From a virus (lineage: Duplodnaviria; Heunggongvirae; Uroviricota; Caudoviricetes), in the IMG/VR virus record IMGVR_UViG_2671180637_000014, positions 1 to 8,417 of that record: a stretch of DNA of 8,417 bases. One strand, given 5' to 3'. This document shows positions 1-8,417 of this stretch, in pieces. A program made the translations under genes and the position numbers. Below the pieces are notes generated by a model. That model was not told the DNA's origin. It saw only the letters and a list, made by a program, of their open reading frames with translations, and did not search any database. Each line of letters opens with the position of its first letter. Positions within the stretch are counted from its first letter, which is position 1.

Positions 1-1448
1 ACCTTATCAGTAAGGTGATGGGCAGTATTTCTAATCCTGAAATTCGCCGGATGGAGCTGATGAACACCATCGCCGGTATTGAGCGTTACGCCGCCGCAGA
101 GGGTGATGTGGGGATGTTTATCACGCTGACCGCGCCGTCAAAGTATCACCCGACACGTCAGGTCGGAAAAGGCGAAAGTAAAACCGTCCAGCTTAATCAC
201 GGCTGGAATGATGAGGCATTTAATCCAAAGGATGCGCAGCGATATCTCTGCCGTATCTGGAGCCTGATGCGCACGGCATTCAAGGATAATGATTTACAGG
301 TCTACGGTTTGCGAGTCGTCGAGCCACACCACGACGGAACGCCGCACTGGCATATGATGCTTTTTTGTAATCCACGCCAGCGTAACCAGATTATCGAAAT
401 CATGCGTCGCTATGCGCTCAAAGAGGATGGCGACGAAAGAGGAGCCGCGCGAAACCGTTTTCAGGCAAAACACCTTAACCGGGGCGGTGCTGCGGGGTAT
501 ATCGCGAAATACATCTCAAAAAATATCGACGGCTATGCACTGGATGGTCAGCTCGATAACGATACCGGCAGACCGCTGAAAGACACTGCCGCGGCTGTTA
601 CCGCATGGGCGTCAACGTGGCGCATTCCGCAATTTAAAACGGTTGGCCTGCCGACAATGGGGGCTTACCGTGAACTACGCAAATTGCCTCGCGGCGTCAG
701 CATTGCTGATGAGTTTGACGAACGCGTCGAGGCTGCACGCGCTGCCGCAGACAGTGGCGATTTTGCGCTGTATATCAGCGCGCAGGGTGGGGCAAATGTC
801 CCGCGCGATTGTCAGACTGTCAGGGTTGCCCGTAGCCCGTCGGATGACGTTAACGAGTATGAGGAAGAAGTCGGGAGAGTGGTCGGCATTTACGCGCCTC
901 ATCTCGGCGCGCGTCATATTCATATCACCAGAACGACGGACTGGCGCATTGTGCCGAAAGTGCCAGTCGTTGAGCCTTTGACTTTAAAAAGCGGCATCGC
1001 CGCGCCTCGGAGTCCTGTCAATAACTGTGGAAAGCTCACCGGTGGTGATACTTCGTTACCGGCTCCCACACCTTCTGAGCACGCCGCAGCAGTGCTAAAT
1101 CTGGTTGATGACGGTGTTATCGAATGGAATGACCCGGAGGTCGTGAGGACGCTCAGGGGTGCATTAAAACACGGCCTGAAAACACCAAATCGTCAGCAAA
1201 GAAACGGAAGCCCGTTAAAACCACATGAAATAGCACCGTCGGCCAGACTGACCCGGTCGGAACGATTGCAAATTACCCGTATCCGCGTTGATCTCGCTCA
1301 GAACGGTATCAGGCCGCAGCGATGGGAGCTTGAGGCGCTGGCGCGTGGCGCGACCGTAAATTATGACGGGAAACAATTCACGTATCCGGTTGCTGATGAG
1401 TGGCCGGGATTCTCCAACTTTATGGCGTTCAGTAGTGAACATTACTGA
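1..1448 (+). CDS. A: Replication initiation endonuclease (P2 gpA-like, rolling-circle HUH family); 5'-truncated by the window edge
   Basis: The reading frame is open from the window edge (no in-frame stop upstream of nt 15) to TGA at 1446-1448. It contains the HUH metal-binding motif HWHMMLF (nt 345-365) and the twin-tyrosine nicking motif GYIAKYISK (Tyr codons at 498-500 and 510-512), as in P2 gpA and phiX174-type initiators. GC-rich, enterobacterial-like codon usage. Confidence 0.88.
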   Translation, partial: LISKVMGSISNPEIRRMELMNTIAGIERYAAAEGDVGMFITLTAPSKYHPTRQVGKGESKTVQLNHGWNDEAFNPKDAQRYLCRIWSLMRTAFKDNDLQVYGLRVVEPHHDGTPHWHMMLFCNPRQRNQIIEIMRRYALKEDGDERGAARNRFQAKHLNRGGAAGYIAKYISKNIDGYALDGQLDNDTGRPLKDTAAAVTAWASTWRIPQFKTVGLPTMGAYRELRKLPRGVSIADEFDERVEAARAAADSGDFALYISAQGGANVPRDCQTVRVARSPSDDVNEYEEEVGRVVGIYAPHLGARHIHITRTTDWRIVPKVPVVEPLTLKSGIAAPRSPVNNCGKLTGGDTSLPAPTPSEHAAAVLNLVDDGVIEWNDPEVVRTLRGALKHGLKTPNRQQRNGSPLKPHEIAPSARLTRSERLQITRIRVDLAQNGIRPQRWELEALARGATVNYDGKQFTYPVADEWPGFSNFMAFSSEHY

Positions 1449-1520
1449 GAATCTTCGGTTTTTATTAGTTGTGAATAAGGGGAATAGCGTTCTGTACATA
1501 TGGGGCTATGTAATAAATAT

Positions 1521-1556
1521 AAACCGTCAGTTCATTCTGACGGTTTATATATTTTT
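1521..1556. terminator. Bidirectional intrinsic terminator between the convergent gene A and the SIR2-like gene
   Basis: Perfect 10-bp inverted repeat AAACCGTCAG (1521-1530) / CTGACGGTTT (1537-1546) with a 6-nt loop, flanked by T-rich sequence on the + strand (ATATATTTTTAT) and A/T-rich sequence on the - strand. It lies just downstream of both convergent stop codons. Confidence 0.6.
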
Positions 1557-1560
1557 ATGC

Positions 1561-3042
1561 TTAGTATGATAGAAAATCATACAGGCACAATAATTTACGG
1601 TAATGAGTATCTATTTTGTGTGATATAGAGATAAGATATTTTCTGAGTTGTGCTAAGGAAATGGTGTCATTAAGTACACAATACATGATTGTATTGGCTA
1701 CTTTATATTCTTTTGTTGTTTCTAATATCTCATCTATTGTTGTTGCATCACATCTGCACGCTTTAATTCTAGTGAGTTGATTTATTATCTTATCCAGTTG
1801 TCTGTCTTTGTATAGCTTAACGTTTTCTAATTCAGGGCATACAGAACTAAATGCGTAAATTGGAAAGTGCTCATGATTTGTGATAGTTTGTTTATTCAAA
1901 AGTGCAATGAGTTGTGCGTTAGCTTCATCGACAATTTTAAAGTAATTTTGAATCATTTCAGATTTTGTCTGGTATTCGTAGGTAACAGTTCTTTCTGAGC
2001 CTACAGCGATTACCATTTCTTCATTCCGTAATTCATCGAGGTTTTCCGTGATTTTTACCTTGATTTCACCGCCACTTTTTATTGTATTCCAGACTTTTTG
2101 TACTTTTCTTATATCCATTGCGGAAACAGGGAGAATTAAATTAGATATGGCATCGTAAACGGCTTTGTAATTGTCTGTTTTGATTTTGTTAATTCTTATA
2201 ATGGATAAACCTTCAATATTAATATCATGTTCAGAAATAGTTGTAGACATGTTCCCCTCATCATATTCAACAAGGAGAAAGTTGTCTTTTATTTTTTTTG
2301 CTAGTTCAGTATTTAGATCTACATATGAAAATATTGTCTGCAGGAGGTATTTAATATTCTTATCACTGATGCTATATCCTAAAAAAATAATGGGGTTGTG
2401 AATGAATATAGATAATAGTTGAGCACGTATTAACTCATATTTGTCATTAAAGTTATTATAATCATCAGATGTTATGATTATGTTGTTGGGGTCACTAACA
2501 CAACCGTGTATTTTATATACCGAGCCATATGGATTGCTTAGTAATATATTGTTGCCAATAAGCGGGGAGAAATCGAATAAATTTTCGATAAGTTGATCGT
2601 AATTGGTGGTAATAATTGAGCCAATATTCTTTCTTGTTTTTATTAAGCTATTAATCTCATCTCTTAAATCTTCTTTGAGAGGTGAGTCTTTTAATATTGA
2701 TGTTAGGTATATTTTGAACCGGCTAAGTTTTTTTCCATGACTCATGTTCTCGTAGAAAATATCATTGATGCTTTCAAACTTTCCGTTTCTGTCTTCGGCG
2801 AGTTTCTTATTGAAGATATTCTCTAATTTTGTTGCAAGAATGTCGTATCTGTATTCGTCACCTTCAATACTTTCCGATTTAAGATCATAATAAAATTCAG
2901 GATTGCCAGTTAAATCAACGGCAATTTTCATCAATAACCCATCCCAACTGAATGAGTTTTGCAGATATCTTAGACTAAAACCTGTACCTATAAAAAGAAC
3001 AGGGTGGTTTTTGTACTGGCTGACAAATTCTTTGATTTCCAT
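1561..3042 (-). CDS. SIR2-like (ThsA/DSR-type, SIR2_2-like) predicted NAD+-hydrolase with an uncharacterized C-terminal domain; candidate single-gene anti-phage defense protein (phage moron)
   Basis: 493-aa ORF, ATG at 3042-3040, TAA at 1563-1561, with no competing long ORF. The N-terminal half has the ordered SIR2 motif set: glycine-rich loop VLFIGTGFS (aa 15-23, nt 2974-3000), TTNYDQLIE with the predicted catalytic Asn147 (nt 2596-2610), YKIHGC with the predicted catalytic His179 (codon 2506-2508), and FLGYSISD (aa 220-227). Base composition is strongly AT-rich compared with the flanking phage genes. It sits at the gpA-cos position where P2 has tin/old. Confidence 0.8.
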   Translation of the reverse strand: MEIKEFVSQYKNHPVLFIGTGFSLRYLQNSFSWDGLLMKIAVDLTGNPEFYYDLKSESIEGDEYRYDILATKLENIFNKKLAEDRNGKFESINDIFYENMSHGKKLSRFKIYLTSILKDSPLKEDLRDEINSLIKTRKNIGSIITTNYDQLIENLFDFSPLIGNNILLSNPYGSVYKIHGCVSDPNNIIITSDDYNNFNDKYELIRAQLLSIFIHNPIIFLGYSISDKNIKYLLQTIFSYVDLNTELAKKIKDNFLLVEYDEGNMSTTISEHDINIEGLSIIRINKIKTDNYKAVYDAISNLILPVSAMDIRKVQKVWNTIKSGGEIKVKITENLDELRNEEMVIAVGSERTVTYEYQTKSEMIQNYFKIVDEANAQLIALLNKQTITNHEHFPIYAFSSVCPELENVKLYKDRQLDKIINQLTRIKACRCDATTIDEILETTKEYKVANTIMYCVLNDTISLAQLRKYLISISHKIDTHYRKLLCLYDFLSY

Positions 3043-3250
3043 ATTAATTCTCGAAGTTGATCATCGTTATCTCTATACAACCAAATAGCAGATAAAACTT
3101 CAAACAGACTTTCAAAAAGCGACATATGTTTTGGCAGAATAAGGATGAGCGCATCAGTGTCAAGAAGATTTGAGATCTTAATCTACTCAATAGGAACAAG
3201 ACGTCAGACTTAATTGTGTACTACCGGTGAAAACTGCCTGATAAAGTTGA
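3043..3250 (-). promoter_or_regulatory. Putative promoter/5' leader region of the SIR2-like gene
   Basis: AT-rich non-coding DNA immediately upstream of the ATG at 3042 on the - strand. There is a weak Shine-Dalgarno-like GAGA 7-10 nt upstream of the start, and a possible -35-like TTGAAG (plus coordinates 3098-3103), but no convincing -10 hexamer was identified by eye. Position and composition only; no transcription start site can be assigned. Confidence 0.3.
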
Positions 3251-3436
3251 ATCTACGGCATGATTCGTCGGTTTTTTATGCGATATTACCTTAGTTTCTG
3301 TTGTCCTTGGTAATACTGACGTTATTGCATTAAATTGCATGTGTTTTGATTTCATGCCCTTTGCCAACTACGTCAATACTGGTGCTGTTTCCACGTGTTT
3401 ATGCACTTGCATTAAAACCGCAACATGAAGCGGGCG

Positions 3437-3455
3437 GGCGAGGCGGGGAAAGCAC
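3437..3455. other. cos site: 19-nt cohesive-end sequence of P2-type phages
   Basis: The sequence GGCGAGGCGGGGAAAGCAC at 3437-3455 matches the P2 cohesive-end sequence as I recall it. It lies in a GC-rich block just outside the end of portal gene Q, the position expected for P2 cos. Confidence 0.75.
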
Positions 3456-3596
3456 TGCGCGCTGGCGGTGGTGCTGATTTTATTTTTTCAGCGTCTGAAC
3501 GCGCCGTGATGACGTTTAGATTGTTAGCCGGGGCGTTGGTGTGTCTGCGGGCTGTTTTGTGCGGTGGTGAGCGTGTGAGGGCGTGATGACGGGATG

Positions 3597-3619
3597 TAAA
3601 AAAGCCGCCCGCAGGCGGC
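3597..3619 (-). terminator. Intrinsic terminator downstream of portal gene Q (end of the P-Q operon)
   Basis: On the - strand: stem GCCGCC / GGCGGC (plus coordinates 3604-3609 and 3614-3619) with a 4-nt loop, followed by a run of six T's and an A (plus-strand A-run 3598-3603). It starts 5 nt after the Q stop codon. Confidence 0.65.
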
Positions 3620-3624
3620 GATGT

Positions 3625-4659
3625 TCAGCCGTTGTCAGTGTCCAGTGAGTAGTTTTTAAAGCGGATGACCTCCTGACCGAGCCAGCCGTTTATCTCGCGG
3701 ATCCTGTCCTGTAACGGGATAAGCTCATTGCGGACAAAGACCTTTGCCACTTTCTCAATATCGCCCAGCGACCCGACGTTCTCCGGCTTGCCGCCCATCA
3801 ACTGAAAGGGGATGCGGTGTGCGTCCAGCAGGTCAGCGGCGCTGGCTTTTTTGATATTAAAAAAATCGTCCTTCGTTGCCACTTCACTGAGGGGGATAAT
3901 TTTAATACCGTCGGCTTTCCCCTGTGGGGCATAGAGAAACAGATTTTTAAAGTTGTTGCGGCCTTTCGACTTGACCATGTTTTCGCGAAGCATTTCGATA
4001 TCGTTGCGATCCTGCACGGCATCGGTGACGTACATGATATATCCGGCATGAGCGCCGTTTTCGTAATACTTGCGGCGGAACAGCGTGGCCGACTCATTCA
4101 GCCAGGCAGAGTTAAGGGCGCTGAGATATTCCGGCAGGCCGTACAGCTCCTGATTAATATCCGGCTCCAGCAGGTGAAACACGGAGCCGGGCGCGAAGGC
4201 TGTCGGCTCGTTGAAGGACGGCACCCACCAGTAAACATCCTCCTCCACGCCACGGCGGGTATATTTTGCCGGTGAGGTTTCCAGTCTGATGACCTTACCG
4301 GTGGTGCTGTAACGCTTTTCCAGAAACGCATTACCGAACACCAGAAAATCCAGCACAAAGCGGCTGAAATCCTGCTGGGAAAGCCACGGATGCGGGATAA
4401 ACGTTGAAGCCAGAATATTACGTTTGACGTAAATCGGGGAGCTGTGATGCACGGCAGCACGCAGGCTTTTTGCCAGACCGGTAAAGCTGACCGGTGGCTC
4501 ATACCATCTGCCGTTACTGATGCATTCGACGTAATCCAGAATGTCACGGCGGTCGAGTACCGGCACCGGTTCGCCAAAGGTGAATGCCTCCATTTTCGGG
4601 GCGCTGGCGGTCATTTTTTTTGCCGCAGGTTGCGGTGTTTTCCCTTTTTTCTTGCTCAT
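3625..4659 (-). CDS. Q: Portal protein (P2 gpQ-like)
   Basis: 344-aa ORF, the same length as P2 gpQ. The lysine-rich N-terminus MSKKKGKTPQPAAKK and the overall sequence are recognisable as the P2-family portal. Its ATG (4659-4657) overlaps the stop codon of P by one nucleotide. High-GC phage-backbone composition. Confidence 0.93.
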   Translation of the reverse strand: MSKKKGKTPQPAAKKMTASAPKMEAFTFGEPVPVLDRRDILDYVECISNGRWYEPPVSFTGLAKSLRAAVHHSSPIYVKRNILASTFIPHPWLSQQDFSRFVLDFLVFGNAFLEKRYSTTGKVIRLETSPAKYTRRGVEEDVYWWVPSFNEPTAFAPGSVFHLLEPDINQELYGLPEYLSALNSAWLNESATLFRRKYYENGAHAGYIMYVTDAVQDRNDIEMLRENMVKSKGRNNFKNLFLYAPQGKADGIKIIPLSEVATKDDFFNIKKASAADLLDAHRIPFQLMGGKPENVGSLGDIEKVAKVFVRNELIPLQDRIREINGWLGQEVIRFKNYSLDTDNG

Positions 4660-6431
4660 CAGTAAAACTCCAGAATGGTGGATGTCAGCGGGGTGCTGAT
4701 ACCGGCGGTGAGTGGCTCATTTAACAGAGCGTGCATGGTCGCCCAGGCGAGGTCGGCGTGGCTGGCTTCCTCGCTGCGGCTGGCCTCATAGGTGGCGCTG
4801 CGTCCGCTGCTGGTCATGGTCTTGCGGATAGCCATAAACGAGCTGGTGATGTCGGTGGCGCTGACGTCATATTCCAGACAGCCACGGCGGATAACGTCTT
4901 TTGCCTTGAGCACCATTGCGGTTTTCATTTCCGGTGTGTAGCGGATGTCGCGCGCGGCGGGATAGAACGAGCGCACGAGCTGGAACACGCCGACACCGAG
5001 GCCGGTGGCATCAATACCGATGTATTCGACGTTATATTTTTCGGTGAGTTTGCGGATGGATTCCGCCTGGGTGGCAAAGTCCATGCCTTTCCACTGGTGA
5101 CGCTCAAGTATTCTGAATTTGCCACCGGCCACCACCGGCGGTGCCAGCACCACGCATCCGGCACTGTCGCCACGGTGTGACGGGTCGTAACCAATCCATA
5201 CCGGGCGGGAGCCGAACGGATTCGCGGCAAACGGCGCATAGTCTTCCCATTCTTCCAGCGTGTCGACCATGCAGCGTTGCAGCTCCTCGAACGGGAACAC
5301 CGACGCCTTGTCGTCAACAAATTCACACATGAACAGGTTTTTAAAATCGTCGGCGCTGTTTTCGCGTTTAAGCTGCTCAATGTCGAACAATGTGCAGCCG
5401 CCTTTCAGGGCGTCCTCAATGGTGACAATCTGCCGCCACTGGCCGTCCGCACAGAGAAGCCCACCGGCAAGGGCGTTATGACTGACGTCGATTTCCACGC
5501 GTTCGGCGGCGCTGGCGCGTCCCCGGTTGAACAGTTCCCCCGACCAGAACGGGTAGGCGTCGTGCGCCAGCGTGGACGGGGTGGAGAAATAGGTCGAGCG
5601 CAGGTGACTCTGTGAGGCCATACCTGATGCCACCTTACGCAGTACCTGAAAATTCGGGATCCAGAAAATCTCATCGACGTACAGGTCGCCGTTATGGCTC
5701 TGTGCGGTGTTGGAGTTGGTGCCGAGAAAAATCAGTTTTGCACCGTTATTGCCCAGGACAATCGGGTCACCGGTCAGGTCAACGTCAACCAGCCGGGCAA
5801 AGGCAATGATGTATTCGCGGAACACATACGCCTGCGTTTTACTGGCCGACAGAAAAATCTGGTTATGGCCGGTTTTCAGGGCGCGCAGCAGCGCCTCGCG
5901 GGAAAAATAAAACGTCGCGCCAATCTGGCGGGATTTCAGGATATCGCGGATGCGGTGCTCAAGCCCGGCACGATACCAGTGCAACTGATAGTCGAAAGAC
6001 TGCTCAAAGAAAATCTGCTCCAGCTTTTCGATAGCCTCGTCACTGAAAAAATTCTTTTTCGGTTTGCGCCGCCCGCCTTTGTTGCGGTTAGCGATGTTCG
6101 GATTAAGGTCTGCCTCGTTGCCGGTCTGGCTGTAGCGGTTGACCCGTGCCAGTCGTTCAATCTGGCGTCCGAGCAGGTCAATTTCCTTGAAGTCACCGCC
6201 GGTTTTCTGCGGTTTGATGATGAGCTGGGTCAGCCGCGCTTCCAGACTCATTTCGACACGGCTGATGGGGGCAACACTGTCCCAGCCGTCGCGCTGTTTC
6301 CAGCTCTGCACCGTCGGGCGTTTCATCTGCAACATGGCGGCAATCTGCGGCACGGAAAACCCCTGCCAGTACAGCAGCGCCGCCTGACGACGCGGGTCGT
6401 GTAAAAGAGTGGTGTCTGTGGTGATGGTCAT
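4659..6431 (-). CDS. P: Terminase large (ATPase/endonuclease) subunit (P2 gpP-like)
   Basis: Long - strand ORF. The start is assigned to the ATG at 6431-6429 (protein begins MTITTDTTLLHDP, 590 aa, the P2 gpP length) rather than the upstream ATG at 6461, because a GAGG Shine-Dalgarno lies 6-9 nt upstream of 6431. The TGA stop at 4661-4659 overlaps the Q start. The sequence is recognisable as the P2-family terminase ATPase subunit. Confidence 0.93.
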   Translation of the reverse strand: MTITTDTTLLHDPRRQAALLYWQGFSVPQIAAMLQMKRPTVQSWKQRDGWDSVAPISRVEMSLEARLTQLIIKPQKTGGDFKEIDLLGRQIERLARVNRYSQTGNEADLNPNIANRNKGGRRKPKKNFFSDEAIEKLEQIFFEQSFDYQLHWYRAGLEHRIRDILKSRQIGATFYFSREALLRALKTGHNQIFLSASKTQAYVFREYIIAFARLVDVDLTGDPIVLGNNGAKLIFLGTNSNTAQSHNGDLYVDEIFWIPNFQVLRKVASGMASQSHLRSTYFSTPSTLAHDAYPFWSGELFNRGRASAAERVEIDVSHNALAGGLLCADGQWRQIVTIEDALKGGCTLFDIEQLKRENSADDFKNLFMCEFVDDKASVFPFEELQRCMVDTLEEWEDYAPFAANPFGSRPVWIGYDPSHRGDSAGCVVLAPPVVAGGKFRILERHQWKGMDFATQAESIRKLTEKYNVEYIGIDATGLGVGVFQLVRSFYPAARDIRYTPEMKTAMVLKAKDVIRRGCLEYDVSATDITSSFMAIRKTMTSSGRSATYEASRSEEASHADLAWATMHALLNEPLTAGISTPLTSTILEFY

Positions 6432-6604
6432 GAATACCTCGCCGTGATGAATACACGGCAAGGCTACTGAGTCGCGCCCCGCGATTCGCTAAGGTGCTGT
6501 TGTGTCAGTGATAAGCCATCCGGGACTGATGGCGGAGGATGCGCATCGTCGGGAAACTGATGCCGACATGTGACTCCTCTAATCACTATTCAGGACTCCT
6601 GACA
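6432..6604. promoter_or_regulatory. Divergent intergenic region between P and O; expected site of the divergent late promoters of P2-like phages
   Basis: A 173-bp non-coding gap between the divergently transcribed P (-) and O (+) genes. In P2 this gap holds the Ogr-activated late promoters PP and PO. I could not find an exact TGT-N12-ACA activator element by eye, so the call rests on gene arrangement alone. Confidence 0.45.
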
Positions 6605-7459
6605 ATGGCAAAAAAAGCATCAAAATTCTTTCGTATCGGCGTTGAGGGTGACACCTGTGACGGGCGTGTCATCAGTGCGCAGGATATTCAGGAAATGGCC
6701 GAAACCTTTGACCCGCGAGTCTATGGTTGCCGCATTAACCTGGAACATCTGCGCGGCATCCTGCCTGACGGTATTTTTAAGCGTTATGGCGATGTGGTCG
6801 AACTGAAGGCCGAAAAGATTGACGATGATTCGGCGCTGAAAGGCAAATGGGCGCTGTTTGCGAAAATCACACCGACCGATGACCTTATCGCGATGAACAA
6901 GGCCGCGCAGAAGGTCTACACCTCAATGGAAATTCAGCCGAACTTTGCCAATACAGGCAAATGTTATCTGGTGGGTCTGGCCGTCACCGATGACCCGGCA
7001 AGCCTCGGCACGGAATACCTGGAATTCTGCCGCACGGCAAAACATAACCCTCTGAACCGCTTCAAATTAAGCCCTGAAAACCTGATTTCAGTGGCAACGC
7101 CTGTTGAGCTGGAATTTGAAGACCTGCCTGAAACCGTGTTCACCGCCCTGACCGAAAAGGTGAAATCCATTTTTGGCCGCAAACAGGCGAGCGATGACGC
7201 CCGTCTGAATGACGTGCATGAAGCGGTGACCGCTGTCGCTGAACATGTGCAGGAAAAACTGAGCGCCACTGAGCAGCGCCTCGCTGAGATGGAAACCGCC
7301 TTTTCCGCACTTAAGCAGGATGTGACTGACAGGGCGGATGAAACCAGCCAGGCATTCACCCGCCTGAAAAACAGCCTCGACCACACCGAAAGTCTGACCC
7401 AGCAGCGCCGCAGCAAGGCCACCGGCGGTGGCGGTGACGCCCTGATGACGAACTGCTGA
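6605..7459 (+). CDS. O: Capsid scaffolding protein (P2 gpO-like)
   Basis: The start is assigned to the ATG at 6605 (MAKKASKFFRIGVEGDTCDGRV...), giving 284 aa, the P2 gpO length. An AGGA Shine-Dalgarno lies at 6592-6595. The ORF-track start at 6539 is an in-frame upstream extension with no ribosome-binding site. TGA stop at 7457-7459. Confidence 0.92.
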   Translation: MAKKASKFFRIGVEGDTCDGRVISAQDIQEMAETFDPRVYGCRINLEHLRGILPDGIFKRYGDVVELKAEKIDDDSALKGKWALFAKITPTDDLIAMNKAAQKVYTSMEIQPNFANTGKCYLVGLAVTDDPASLGTEYLEFCRTAKHNPLNRFKLSPENLISVATPVELEFEDLPETVFTALTEKVKSIFGRKQASDDARLNDVHEAVTAVAEHVQEKLSATEQRLAEMETAFSALKQDVTDRADETSQAFTRLKNSLDHTESLTQQRRSKATGGGGDALMTNC

Positions 7460-7517
7460 CCGGCGTCAGTCAGTCCGGGAAAACCTTCACGATTAACCCT
7501 TAATTTCAGGAAAAACT

Positions 7518-8417
7518 ATGCGCCAGGAAACCCGCTTTAAATTTAATGCCTACCTGTCCCGTGTTGCCGAACTGAACGGCATCGACGCCGGTGATGTGTC
7601 GAAAAAATTCACCGTTGAACCGTCGGTCACCCAGACCCTGATGAACACCATGCAGGAGTCCTCTGATTTTCTGACCCGCATCAACATTGTGCCGGTCAGC
7701 GAAATGAAAGGGGAAAAAATTGGTATTGGTGTCACCGGCTCCATCGCCAGCACCACCGACACCGCCGGTGGCACCGAGCGTCAGCCGAAGGACTTCTCGA
7801 AGCTGGCGTCAAACAAGTACGAATGCGACCAGATTAACTTCGATTTTTATATCCGCTACAAAACGCTGGACCTGTGGGCGCGTTATCAGGATTTCCAGCT
7901 CCGTATCCGTAACGCCATTATCAAACGCCAGTCCCTTGATTTCATCATGGCCGGTTTTAACGGCGTGAAGCGTGCCGAAACCTCTGACCGCAGCAGCAAT
8001 CCGATGCTGCAGGATGTGGCGGTCGGCTGGCTGCAGAAATACCGCAATGAAGCCCCGGCGCGCGTGATGAGCAAGGTCACTGACGAGGAAGGTCACACGA
8101 CCTCTGAGGTCATCCGCGTGGGTAAGGGCGGTGATTATGCCAGCCTCGATGCACTGGTGATGGATGCGACCAACAACCTGATTGAGCCGTGGTATCAGGA
8201 AGACCCTGACCTTGTGGTGATTGTGGGGCGTCAGCTACTGGCGGACAAGTATTTCCCCATCGTCAACAAGGAGCAGGACAACAGCGAGATGCTGGCCGCT
8301 GACGTCATCATCAGCCAGAAACGCATCGGCAACCTGCCAGCGGTACGCGTCCCGTACTTCCCGGCGGATGCGATGCTCATCACGAAGCTGGAAAACCTGT
8401 CCATCTACTACATGGAT
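7518..8417 (+). CDS. N: Major capsid protein (P2 gpN-like); 3'-truncated by the window edge
   Basis: ATG at 7518 preceded by AGGA (7507-7510). The frame is open for 300 codons to the end of the window. The translation MRQETRFKFNAYLSRVAELNGIDAGD... is recognisable as the P2-family major capsid protein and follows O in the conserved O-N order. Confidence 0.92.
   Translation, partial: MRQETRFKFNAYLSRVAELNGIDAGDVSKKFTVEPSVTQTLMNTMQESSDFLTRINIVPVSEMKGEKIGIGVTGSIASTTDTAGGTERQPKDFSKLASNKYECDQINFDFYIRYKTLDLWARYQDFQLRIRNAIIKRQSLDFIMAGFNGVKRAETSDRSSNPMLQDVAVGWLQKYRNEAPARVMSKVTDEEGHTTSEVIRVGKGGDYASLDALVMDATNNLIEPWYQEDPDLVVIVGRQLLADKYFPIVNKEQDNSEMLAADVIISQKRIGNLPAVRVPYFPADAMLITKLENLSIYYMD

Follow-up and report, generated by a model that had tools for sequence, protein, structure and literature searches.

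The 8,417-nucleotide stretch of viral DNA analysed here (the window; positions 1–8,417 of the IMG/VR record IMGVR_UViG_2671180637_000014, Caudoviricetes) corresponds in its content of open reading frames (ORFs) to the part of a P2-like prophage that runs from the replication to the head genes, and a gene for a 493-residue SIR2-family protein, hereafter the SIR2 protein, is the only cargo of its gpA–cos/gpQ variable hotspot. We put at about 0.6 the probability that this protein is a self-contained abortive-infection NADase, hydrolysing nicotinamide adenine dinucleotide (NAD+) and acting as a single-protein anti-phage system. A preliminary description of the gene, made from the DNA sequence, had proposed such a reading, which our analysis supports as a candidate. 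The N-terminal 300 residues and the position of the gene are described first, followed by the C-terminal module, the relation to known SIR2 systems with the explanations that compete with an abortive-infection NADase, and the homologous loci.

Catalytic domain, family and hotspot position

Residues 1–300 share their fold, and the invariant pair Asn147/His179, with the defence NADases ThsA, DSR2, KomC and Avs5: structure comparison found in this part of the protein a Rossmann fold of the sirtuin type, with a small helical subdomain and without the zinc module, and together these features show a sirtuin NADase-type catalytic domain whose active site is, as predicted from its residues, intact. 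The four motifs on which the preliminary description relied all lie where it had placed them in the minus-strand ORF, with FIGTGFS at residues 17–23, TTNYD holding Asn147, KIHG holding His179 and FLGYSISD at residues 220–227. Its equation of Asn147 and His179 with the catalytic pair of ThsA was confirmed by HMMER alignment to PDB entry 6lhx, where they pair with Asn112 and His152; PDB entry 8bto, the N112A mutant of ThsA, reads TTAYD where the SIR2 protein has TTNYD. Both residues are invariant, as are G19, G21, S23, D149, G222, Y223 and D227, in 32 homologs with identity down to 54%, and the homolog alignment has ~130 invariant columns. Searches with hidden Markov models (HMMs), proposed earlier as a check on SIR2 membership, gave the expected answer: Pfam SIR2_2 (PF13289) matched residues 142–239 with 79.6 bits against a cut-off of 24.5 (E = 3.2e-22). 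ThsA was the closest PDB sequence (E = 1e-8), with the core aligned and nothing more, and PDB matches of the family profile to DSR2 (E = 6e-11), ThsA and KomC likewise covered the core alone.

Among PADLOC models, also proposed as a check, the best match was to the PDC-S25 HMM PDLC04968 (E = 8e-157), with residues 2–493 aligned to positions 13–514 of the 517 in the profile; PDLC04967 was matched at E = 1.3e-59. By this end-to-end match the SIR2 protein is assigned to the PADLOC candidate family PDC-S25, a single-gene SIR2 family from which it shows no structural difference and with which it shares the single-gene organisation. Whether this architecture falls within a family already named, a point left open by the preliminary description, is answered by this assignment. 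PDC systems are 145 candidates nominated for their embedding in BREX, DISARM or type I restriction–modification (R-M) loci (Payne et al.). Nor is the protein new at the P2 hotspot. WP_021514374, annotated at NCBI as 'SIR2 family protein', is 99% identical by BLASTP and differs from the window protein at two residues; five complete E. coli genomes carry it, between genes annotated as 'replication endonuclease' and 'phage portal protein', and it is tabulated for the P2 gpA–gpQ hotspot under the single-gene arrangement 'SIR2_2' (Rousset et al., 2022, Table S5A), where it is not among the eight P2 systems that were cloned. The protein is thus already tabulated in the literature, and its C-terminal module is the one element without a known relative.

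The gene and gene A, whose 3′ part lies in the window, are convergent, and the gene is placed between A and an exact P2 cos cohesive-end sequence (GGCGAGGCGGGGAAAGCAC; no occurrence expected by chance), on the A side of cos, an arrangement that had been recognized from the outset. The same GGCGAGGCGGGGAAAGCAC is found in cloned P2 and P4 hotspot fragments (Rousset et al.). RefSeq annotation of an E. coli locus 98.6% identical to the window agrees with our gene assignments, and 'replication endonuclease' is annotated at the matching position in NZ_CP182365. The foreign composition noted previously was also borne out, the G+C content being 0.318 in the SIR2 coding sequence and 0.328 in the island as a whole (1450–3395), against 0.541 and 0.554 in the flanks. 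When positions 1300–3700 were searched by megablast, only both ends were covered, homology to P2-like phages ending with gene A and restarting at ~3395–3401. Of the E. coli genomes, 2,149 showed homology to the backbone only, as did 76 phage records; the cargo itself was found in no phage record and in five E. coli genomes, out of 5,426 complete ones. The gene therefore has the attributes of hotspot cargo, namely the A–cos/Q position, replaceability among related phages and a distinct composition. This P2 hotspot is known to carry old, tin and several validated defence systems. A second gene in the island, or a small ORF in the leader upstream of the SIR2 gene (3043–3408), was sought and only short unsupported ORFs were seen, with none annotated there by RefSeq.

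The C-terminal module and selection on the gene

Residues 301–400 form a segment specific to the family whose conservation almost equals that of the catalytic core (mean column identity ~0.68–0.83) and which includes an invariant GG; 15 residues are invariant between positions 304 and 356, where conservation is like that of the active site, S307, D310, R312 and G324/G325 being among the invariant ones. Residues 304–356 could be a ligand site, a switch or an oligomer interface. The segment 301–400 has no Pfam or PDB match. Residues 401–480 make up the most variable stretch of the protein (column identity 0.41–0.57) and lie in a confidently modelled helical domain, for which structure comparison found no structural relative. 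When the C-terminal half was searched against Pfam and PDB sequences, it returned noise only (Leptin, DB_JBP1 and RhoGDI, at E 0.05 or worse). A lead towards a death/CARD fold, suggested by the full-length model, was rejected because structure comparison did not recover the six-helix death-fold (DD/CARD/bDLD) bundle.

A profile of residues 300–493 was also searched against 1.84 billion representatives, yielding 176 clusters whose complete members are ~500 residues long with the module at ~300–500, together with fragments. Since no other architecture was met in this search, the module is exclusive to the ~500-residue architecture, and the idea that it is common to other effectors was rejected, there being no domain shuffling among the matches.

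The nucleotide changes between copies of the gene indicate that it is under strong purifying selection. Relative to the E. coli copy L001, the window gene has 15 synonymous and two non-synonymous differences, with a ratio of non-synonymous to synonymous substitution rates (dN/dS) of 0.03. The SIR2 domain accounts for 13 synonymous and no non-synonymous changes, and both amino-acid differences fall in residues 401–480. Against the more distant Brenneria homolog L019, which is 83% identical over the whole protein and 56% identical within residues 401–480, dN was 0.35 in those residues, compared with 0.086 for the SIR2 domain and 0.036 for residues 301–400, so that the rate in 401–480 is four to ten times that in the rest of the protein. 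This is a higher dN than elsewhere and not a demonstration of positive selection: no dN/dS above 1 could be demonstrated, because, the closest pairs apart, dS is saturated.

On this pattern of variation we propose that residues 401–480 may be a specificity or sensor surface. A fuller picture, possible but on balance doubtful, is that residues 301–493 constitute an undescribed phage-sensing or regulatory domain and the 493-residue protein a sensor-plus-NADase immune receptor, spread horizontally over at least six phyla, in which residues 304–356 would be an allosteric switch (a ligand site or a filament interface) and residues 401–480 would set phage specificity.

Known SIR2 systems, proposed mechanism and rival explanations

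The label 'ThsA/DSR-type' given to the gene in the preliminary description holds for the SIR2 core, which is shared, but is otherwise too loose, since the SLOG domain, the TIR partner, and the size and alpha-solenoid of DSR proteins are all absent. ThsA of type I Thoeris (SIR2–SLOG; PDB 6LHX, 7UXT and 8BTO) has the SIR2 core in common with the SIR2 protein, whereas SLOG and the TIR partner are its own. PADLOC ThsA models align to residues 127–301 only, no sequence or structural match to a SLOG or Macro domain was found in the C-terminal module, and no TIR gene (ThsB) is present in the island or among the neighbours in the homolog loci examined. DSR1 and DSR2 resemble the SIR2 protein in being single proteins whose N-terminal part is a SIR2 effector and whose C-terminal region is non-catalytic, but they are 1,000–1,200 residues long; DSR2 has a MID region and an alpha-solenoid (HEAT-like) C-terminal domain, which the SIR2 protein, half its size, lacks. 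The likeness to DSR2 is confined to ~100 core residues, and the PADLOC Dsr1 and Dsr2 models gave no match to the protein at E up to 1. For SIR2–HerA (Nezha), no gene for a HerA (DUF87) ATPase occurs within the window, and 'SIR2_2 + DUF87' is an arrangement separate from the single 'SIR2_2' of WP_021514374 (Rousset et al., 2022). As SLOG, Macro, TIR and HerA are absent in or next to the protein and no Dsr model matches, membership of Thoeris, DSR and SIR2–HerA (Nezha) was rejected on domain, size and partner tests. Three further relatives all lack the C-terminal module of the SIR2 protein: KomC of the Kongming system needs KomA, KomB and deoxyinosine triphosphate (dITP), Avs5 combines its SIR2 domain with a STAND NTPase and a sensor, and human FAM118B is a vertebrate protein. 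The best functional precedent for a stand-alone SIR2 defence protein of ~450–500 residues is sole-Sir2, a CRISPR-supervised single Sir2 protein of ~440 residues that was shown in vitro to convert NAD+ to ADP-ribose (ADPR); one of its close homologs protects against T2 and T4 (bioRxiv 10.1101/2024.12.27.630466). Its domain order is the reverse, the Sir2 domain being C-terminal and preceded by a distinct region.

An abortive-infection mechanism for the SIR2 protein could run as follows. In the lysogen the protein would be made constitutively from its own promoter (3163–3136), with transcription terminated at the 1517–1550 hairpin, and would be kept inactive. The C-terminal module would recognize a product of an infecting phage, with residues 401–480 as a rapidly diversifying specificity surface; the logic is that established for DSR2, which together with sole-Sir2 is the best precedent and whose C-terminal sensor binds a phage protein (tail tube). 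Recognition would then activate the SIR2 domain, probably by altering its oligomeric state, on the pattern of the structurally closest SIR2 enzymes, of which several are filament-formers. NAD+ would be hydrolysed to ADP-ribose and nicotinamide, the infected cell would cease to support phage replication, and abortive infection would in this way shield the clonal lysogen population and hence the prophage.

Several points weigh against this mechanism or against the protein being a defence NADase at all. Defence and NAD+ depletion are both inferred, as are, wholly, the trigger, any oligomerisation and the part played by the C-terminal module. Two stretches, the catalytic loop 161–192 and residues 306–356, are poorly modelled, the latter with a predicted local distance difference test (pLDDT) score below 50. 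The promoter at 3136–3163 is a consensus match alone, and such sites in the region are not above shuffle expectation. The searchable literature holds no published phenotype for any PDC-S25 member. A related gene, pFR88, is a single SIR2 gene from the P4-satellite hotspot of E. coli M605 that was cloned with its native promoter; it is given only under 'additional tested systems' and is not among the protectors against an eight-phage panel or P2-like phages (Rousset et al., 2022). Like the window gene, pFR88 is single-gene, cos-proximal hotspot cargo of a P2/P4 system. The two proteins are of one SIR2 subtype (31% identity over residues 2–300, E = 3e-30; PDC-S25 HMM match of pFR88 at 4e-85), but there is no significant alignment past about residue 300, with the pFR88 sequence of Table S2B truncated at 399 residues. 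The comparison suggests one effector subtype paired with differing C-terminal modules.

If the gene is for defence, its product need not deplete NAD+: the SIR2 domain may instead spend NAD+ on ADP-ribosylation or another modification of a phage or host macromolecule (protein or nucleic acid), or on the synthesis of a nucleotide that signals or is toxic. We regard this as unlikely, though it is the least improbable of the alternatives. Ranking immediately behind it, and likewise unlikely, is a non-defence prophage accessory gene (a 'moron') with a part in addiction or stabilisation, host NAD metabolism, lysogenic physiology or phage replication. The P2 hotspot does hold cargo unrelated to defence, partition systems and a cytolethal distending toxin among it, pFR88 is without reported protection, and PHROG 2695, which the SIR2 protein matches, is of unknown function. 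Moreover, a Klebsiella prophage homolog is co-oriented inside the replication module, between genes for an Enc34-like single-stranded DNA-binding protein and a family-A DNA polymerase, a position that could point to a phage-side function and thus also counts against defence. On the other side, PDC-S25 was nominated from its embedding in BREX, DISARM and R-M loci, the characterised bacterial SIR2_2 proteins among the matches listed are all defence effectors, and non-phage copies stand alone or amid defence genes in the chromosomes of many phyla, a distribution that speaks against a role specific to P2 or in replication.

More improbable again, in our estimate, is an orphan effector triggered by a small-molecule signal from another system in the host or phage genome, with residues 301–400 as the ligand site. 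The closest relatives in sequence and structure, ThsA (activated by a TIR product) and KomC (by dITP), are signal-activated effectors, and conservation of residues 301–400 at the level of the catalytic core, with its invariant GG, fits a ligand site over a fast-evolving protein sensor; against this, the protein has no known ligand domain and no recurrent partner. A decaying or inactive remnant, its SIR2 motifs kept by chance or recent descent, is effectively excluded. Nothing specific speaks for it beyond the rarity of the cargo, and it is contradicted by the intact ORF, the low dN/dS with no replacement in the SIR2 domain, and full-length conservation at 49–83% across phyla.

Should the SIR2 gene prove protective, PDC-S25 would pass from catalogued candidate to validated defence system, and the protein, as an abortive-infection NADase, would be among the smallest self-contained SIR2 immune proteins. 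It would offer a tractable model of how a domain of ~190 residues and unknown fold detects infection and controls a sirtuin NADase, a question also posed by ThsA, DSR2, Avs5 and the human FAM118 proteins, and would add one more data point on P2-like prophages arming their hosts. Current concepts would be left unchanged: defence by SIR2 NADases, sensor-effectors made of a single protein, and the P2 hotspot itself are already established.

Homologous loci and features around the gene

More than 1,700 homologs were recovered, and genome loci with full-length homologs at the identities given above were found in Enterobacterales, Moraxellaceae, Campylobacterota, Clostridia, Bacteroidota and Patescibacteria. 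Their settings vary widely. The Nitrosospira homolog is at a transposase-flanked site, and that of Aeromonas is a lone insertion next to a Y1 transposase, with housekeeping genes on either side. In Salmonella the homolog lies in an integrase-bounded island (L012–L014:3025–5413), with a Peptidase_M78 gene and then a PF14350 'Beta_protein' gene; PF14350 is the domain in the beta gene of the P4 gop–beta–cII defence system. The Klebsiella prophage homolog (L008–L011:6001–7506) is 70% identical and present in hundreds of assemblies; these prophages differ from the P2 hotspot in phage type and in kind of insertion site. In the Firmicutes loci (L004–L007:1–5707) the homologs are just downstream of genes for an RVT_1 reverse-transcriptase protein of more than 993 residues and for HATPase_c_4 and KilA-N proteins, with serine-recombinase fragments flanking, and the locus may be a small mobile defence island with a DRT-like system. 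Among 108 neighbour ORFs from 18 loci, many matches to defence families were obtained, including ZorD/DpdE-like, REase_I, MTase_II, mad2/3, LmuB, PtuA, AriA, AbiLi and PDC-S26, and no recurrent partner emerged, no defence family occurring in more than four of the 108. The SIR2 gene is a self-mobile single-gene unit, often lodged in defence neighbourhoods. One further copy, on a 3-kb contig binned as a Bacillota metagenome-assembled genome (L020:192–1670), is 82% identical to the enterobacterial gene and reflects either mis-binning or very recent cross-phylum transfer, since other Firmicutes copies are ~51–56% identical.

Table 1. Coordinates of the SIR2 gene, its parts and the surrounding features in the 8,417-nucleotide window.
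Feature	Position	Strand	Remarks
Replication endonuclease gene A, 3′ part, P2-type	15–1448	+	ORF; left conserved flank of hotspot; G+C 0.541
Foreign cargo island, ~1.95 kb, one gene	1450–3395		G+C 32.8%; G+C profile and megablast
Hairpin between convergent A and SIR2 genes	1517–1550		14-bp stem; A/T runs on either side
SIR2-family protein gene, 493 aa	1561–3042	−	ATG start; PADLOC PDC-S25 and PHROG 2695 member
Residues 401–480, fastest-evolving	1603–1842	−	In confidently modelled helical domain (domain model pLDDT 93.6)
Residues 301–400, family-specific conserved segment	1843–2142	−	LPVSAMDIRKVQ...SGGEIKV...AVGS and three short helices
Residues 304–356	1975–2133	−	
SIR2_2 NADase-type domain, residues 1–300	2143–3042	−	Rossmann with helical insertion; GxGxS loop 2974–2994
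His179 codon	2506–2508	−	Aligned to catalytic ThsA His152 (HMMER, 6lhx)
Asn147 codon	2602–2604	−	Aligned to catalytic ThsA Asn112 (HMMER, 6lhx)
Best sigma-70-like promoter match	3136–3163	−	TTGACA-16-TATTCT, 10/12; ~94 bp upstream of ATG
P2 cos cohesive-end sequence	3437–3455	+	GGCGAGGCGGGGAAAGCAC; exact match
Portal gene Q	3625–4659	−	Right conserved flank of hotspot; terminator hairpin 3604–3619
Terminase gene P	4659–6461	−	
Scaffold gene O	6539–7459	+	Followed by start of capsid gene

The hairpin between the two convergent genes is likely, from its stem and flanking runs, to be a bidirectional intrinsic terminator, which would probably insulate the cargo from gene A transcription. At the other end of the gene, the sigma-70-like site is a candidate for its own promoter. 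It falls within an AT-rich leader of 365 bp (3043–3408) that extends from the cargo boundary near cos to the ATG, has a weak Shine–Dalgarno-like GAGAA before the start and may hold regulatory elements.

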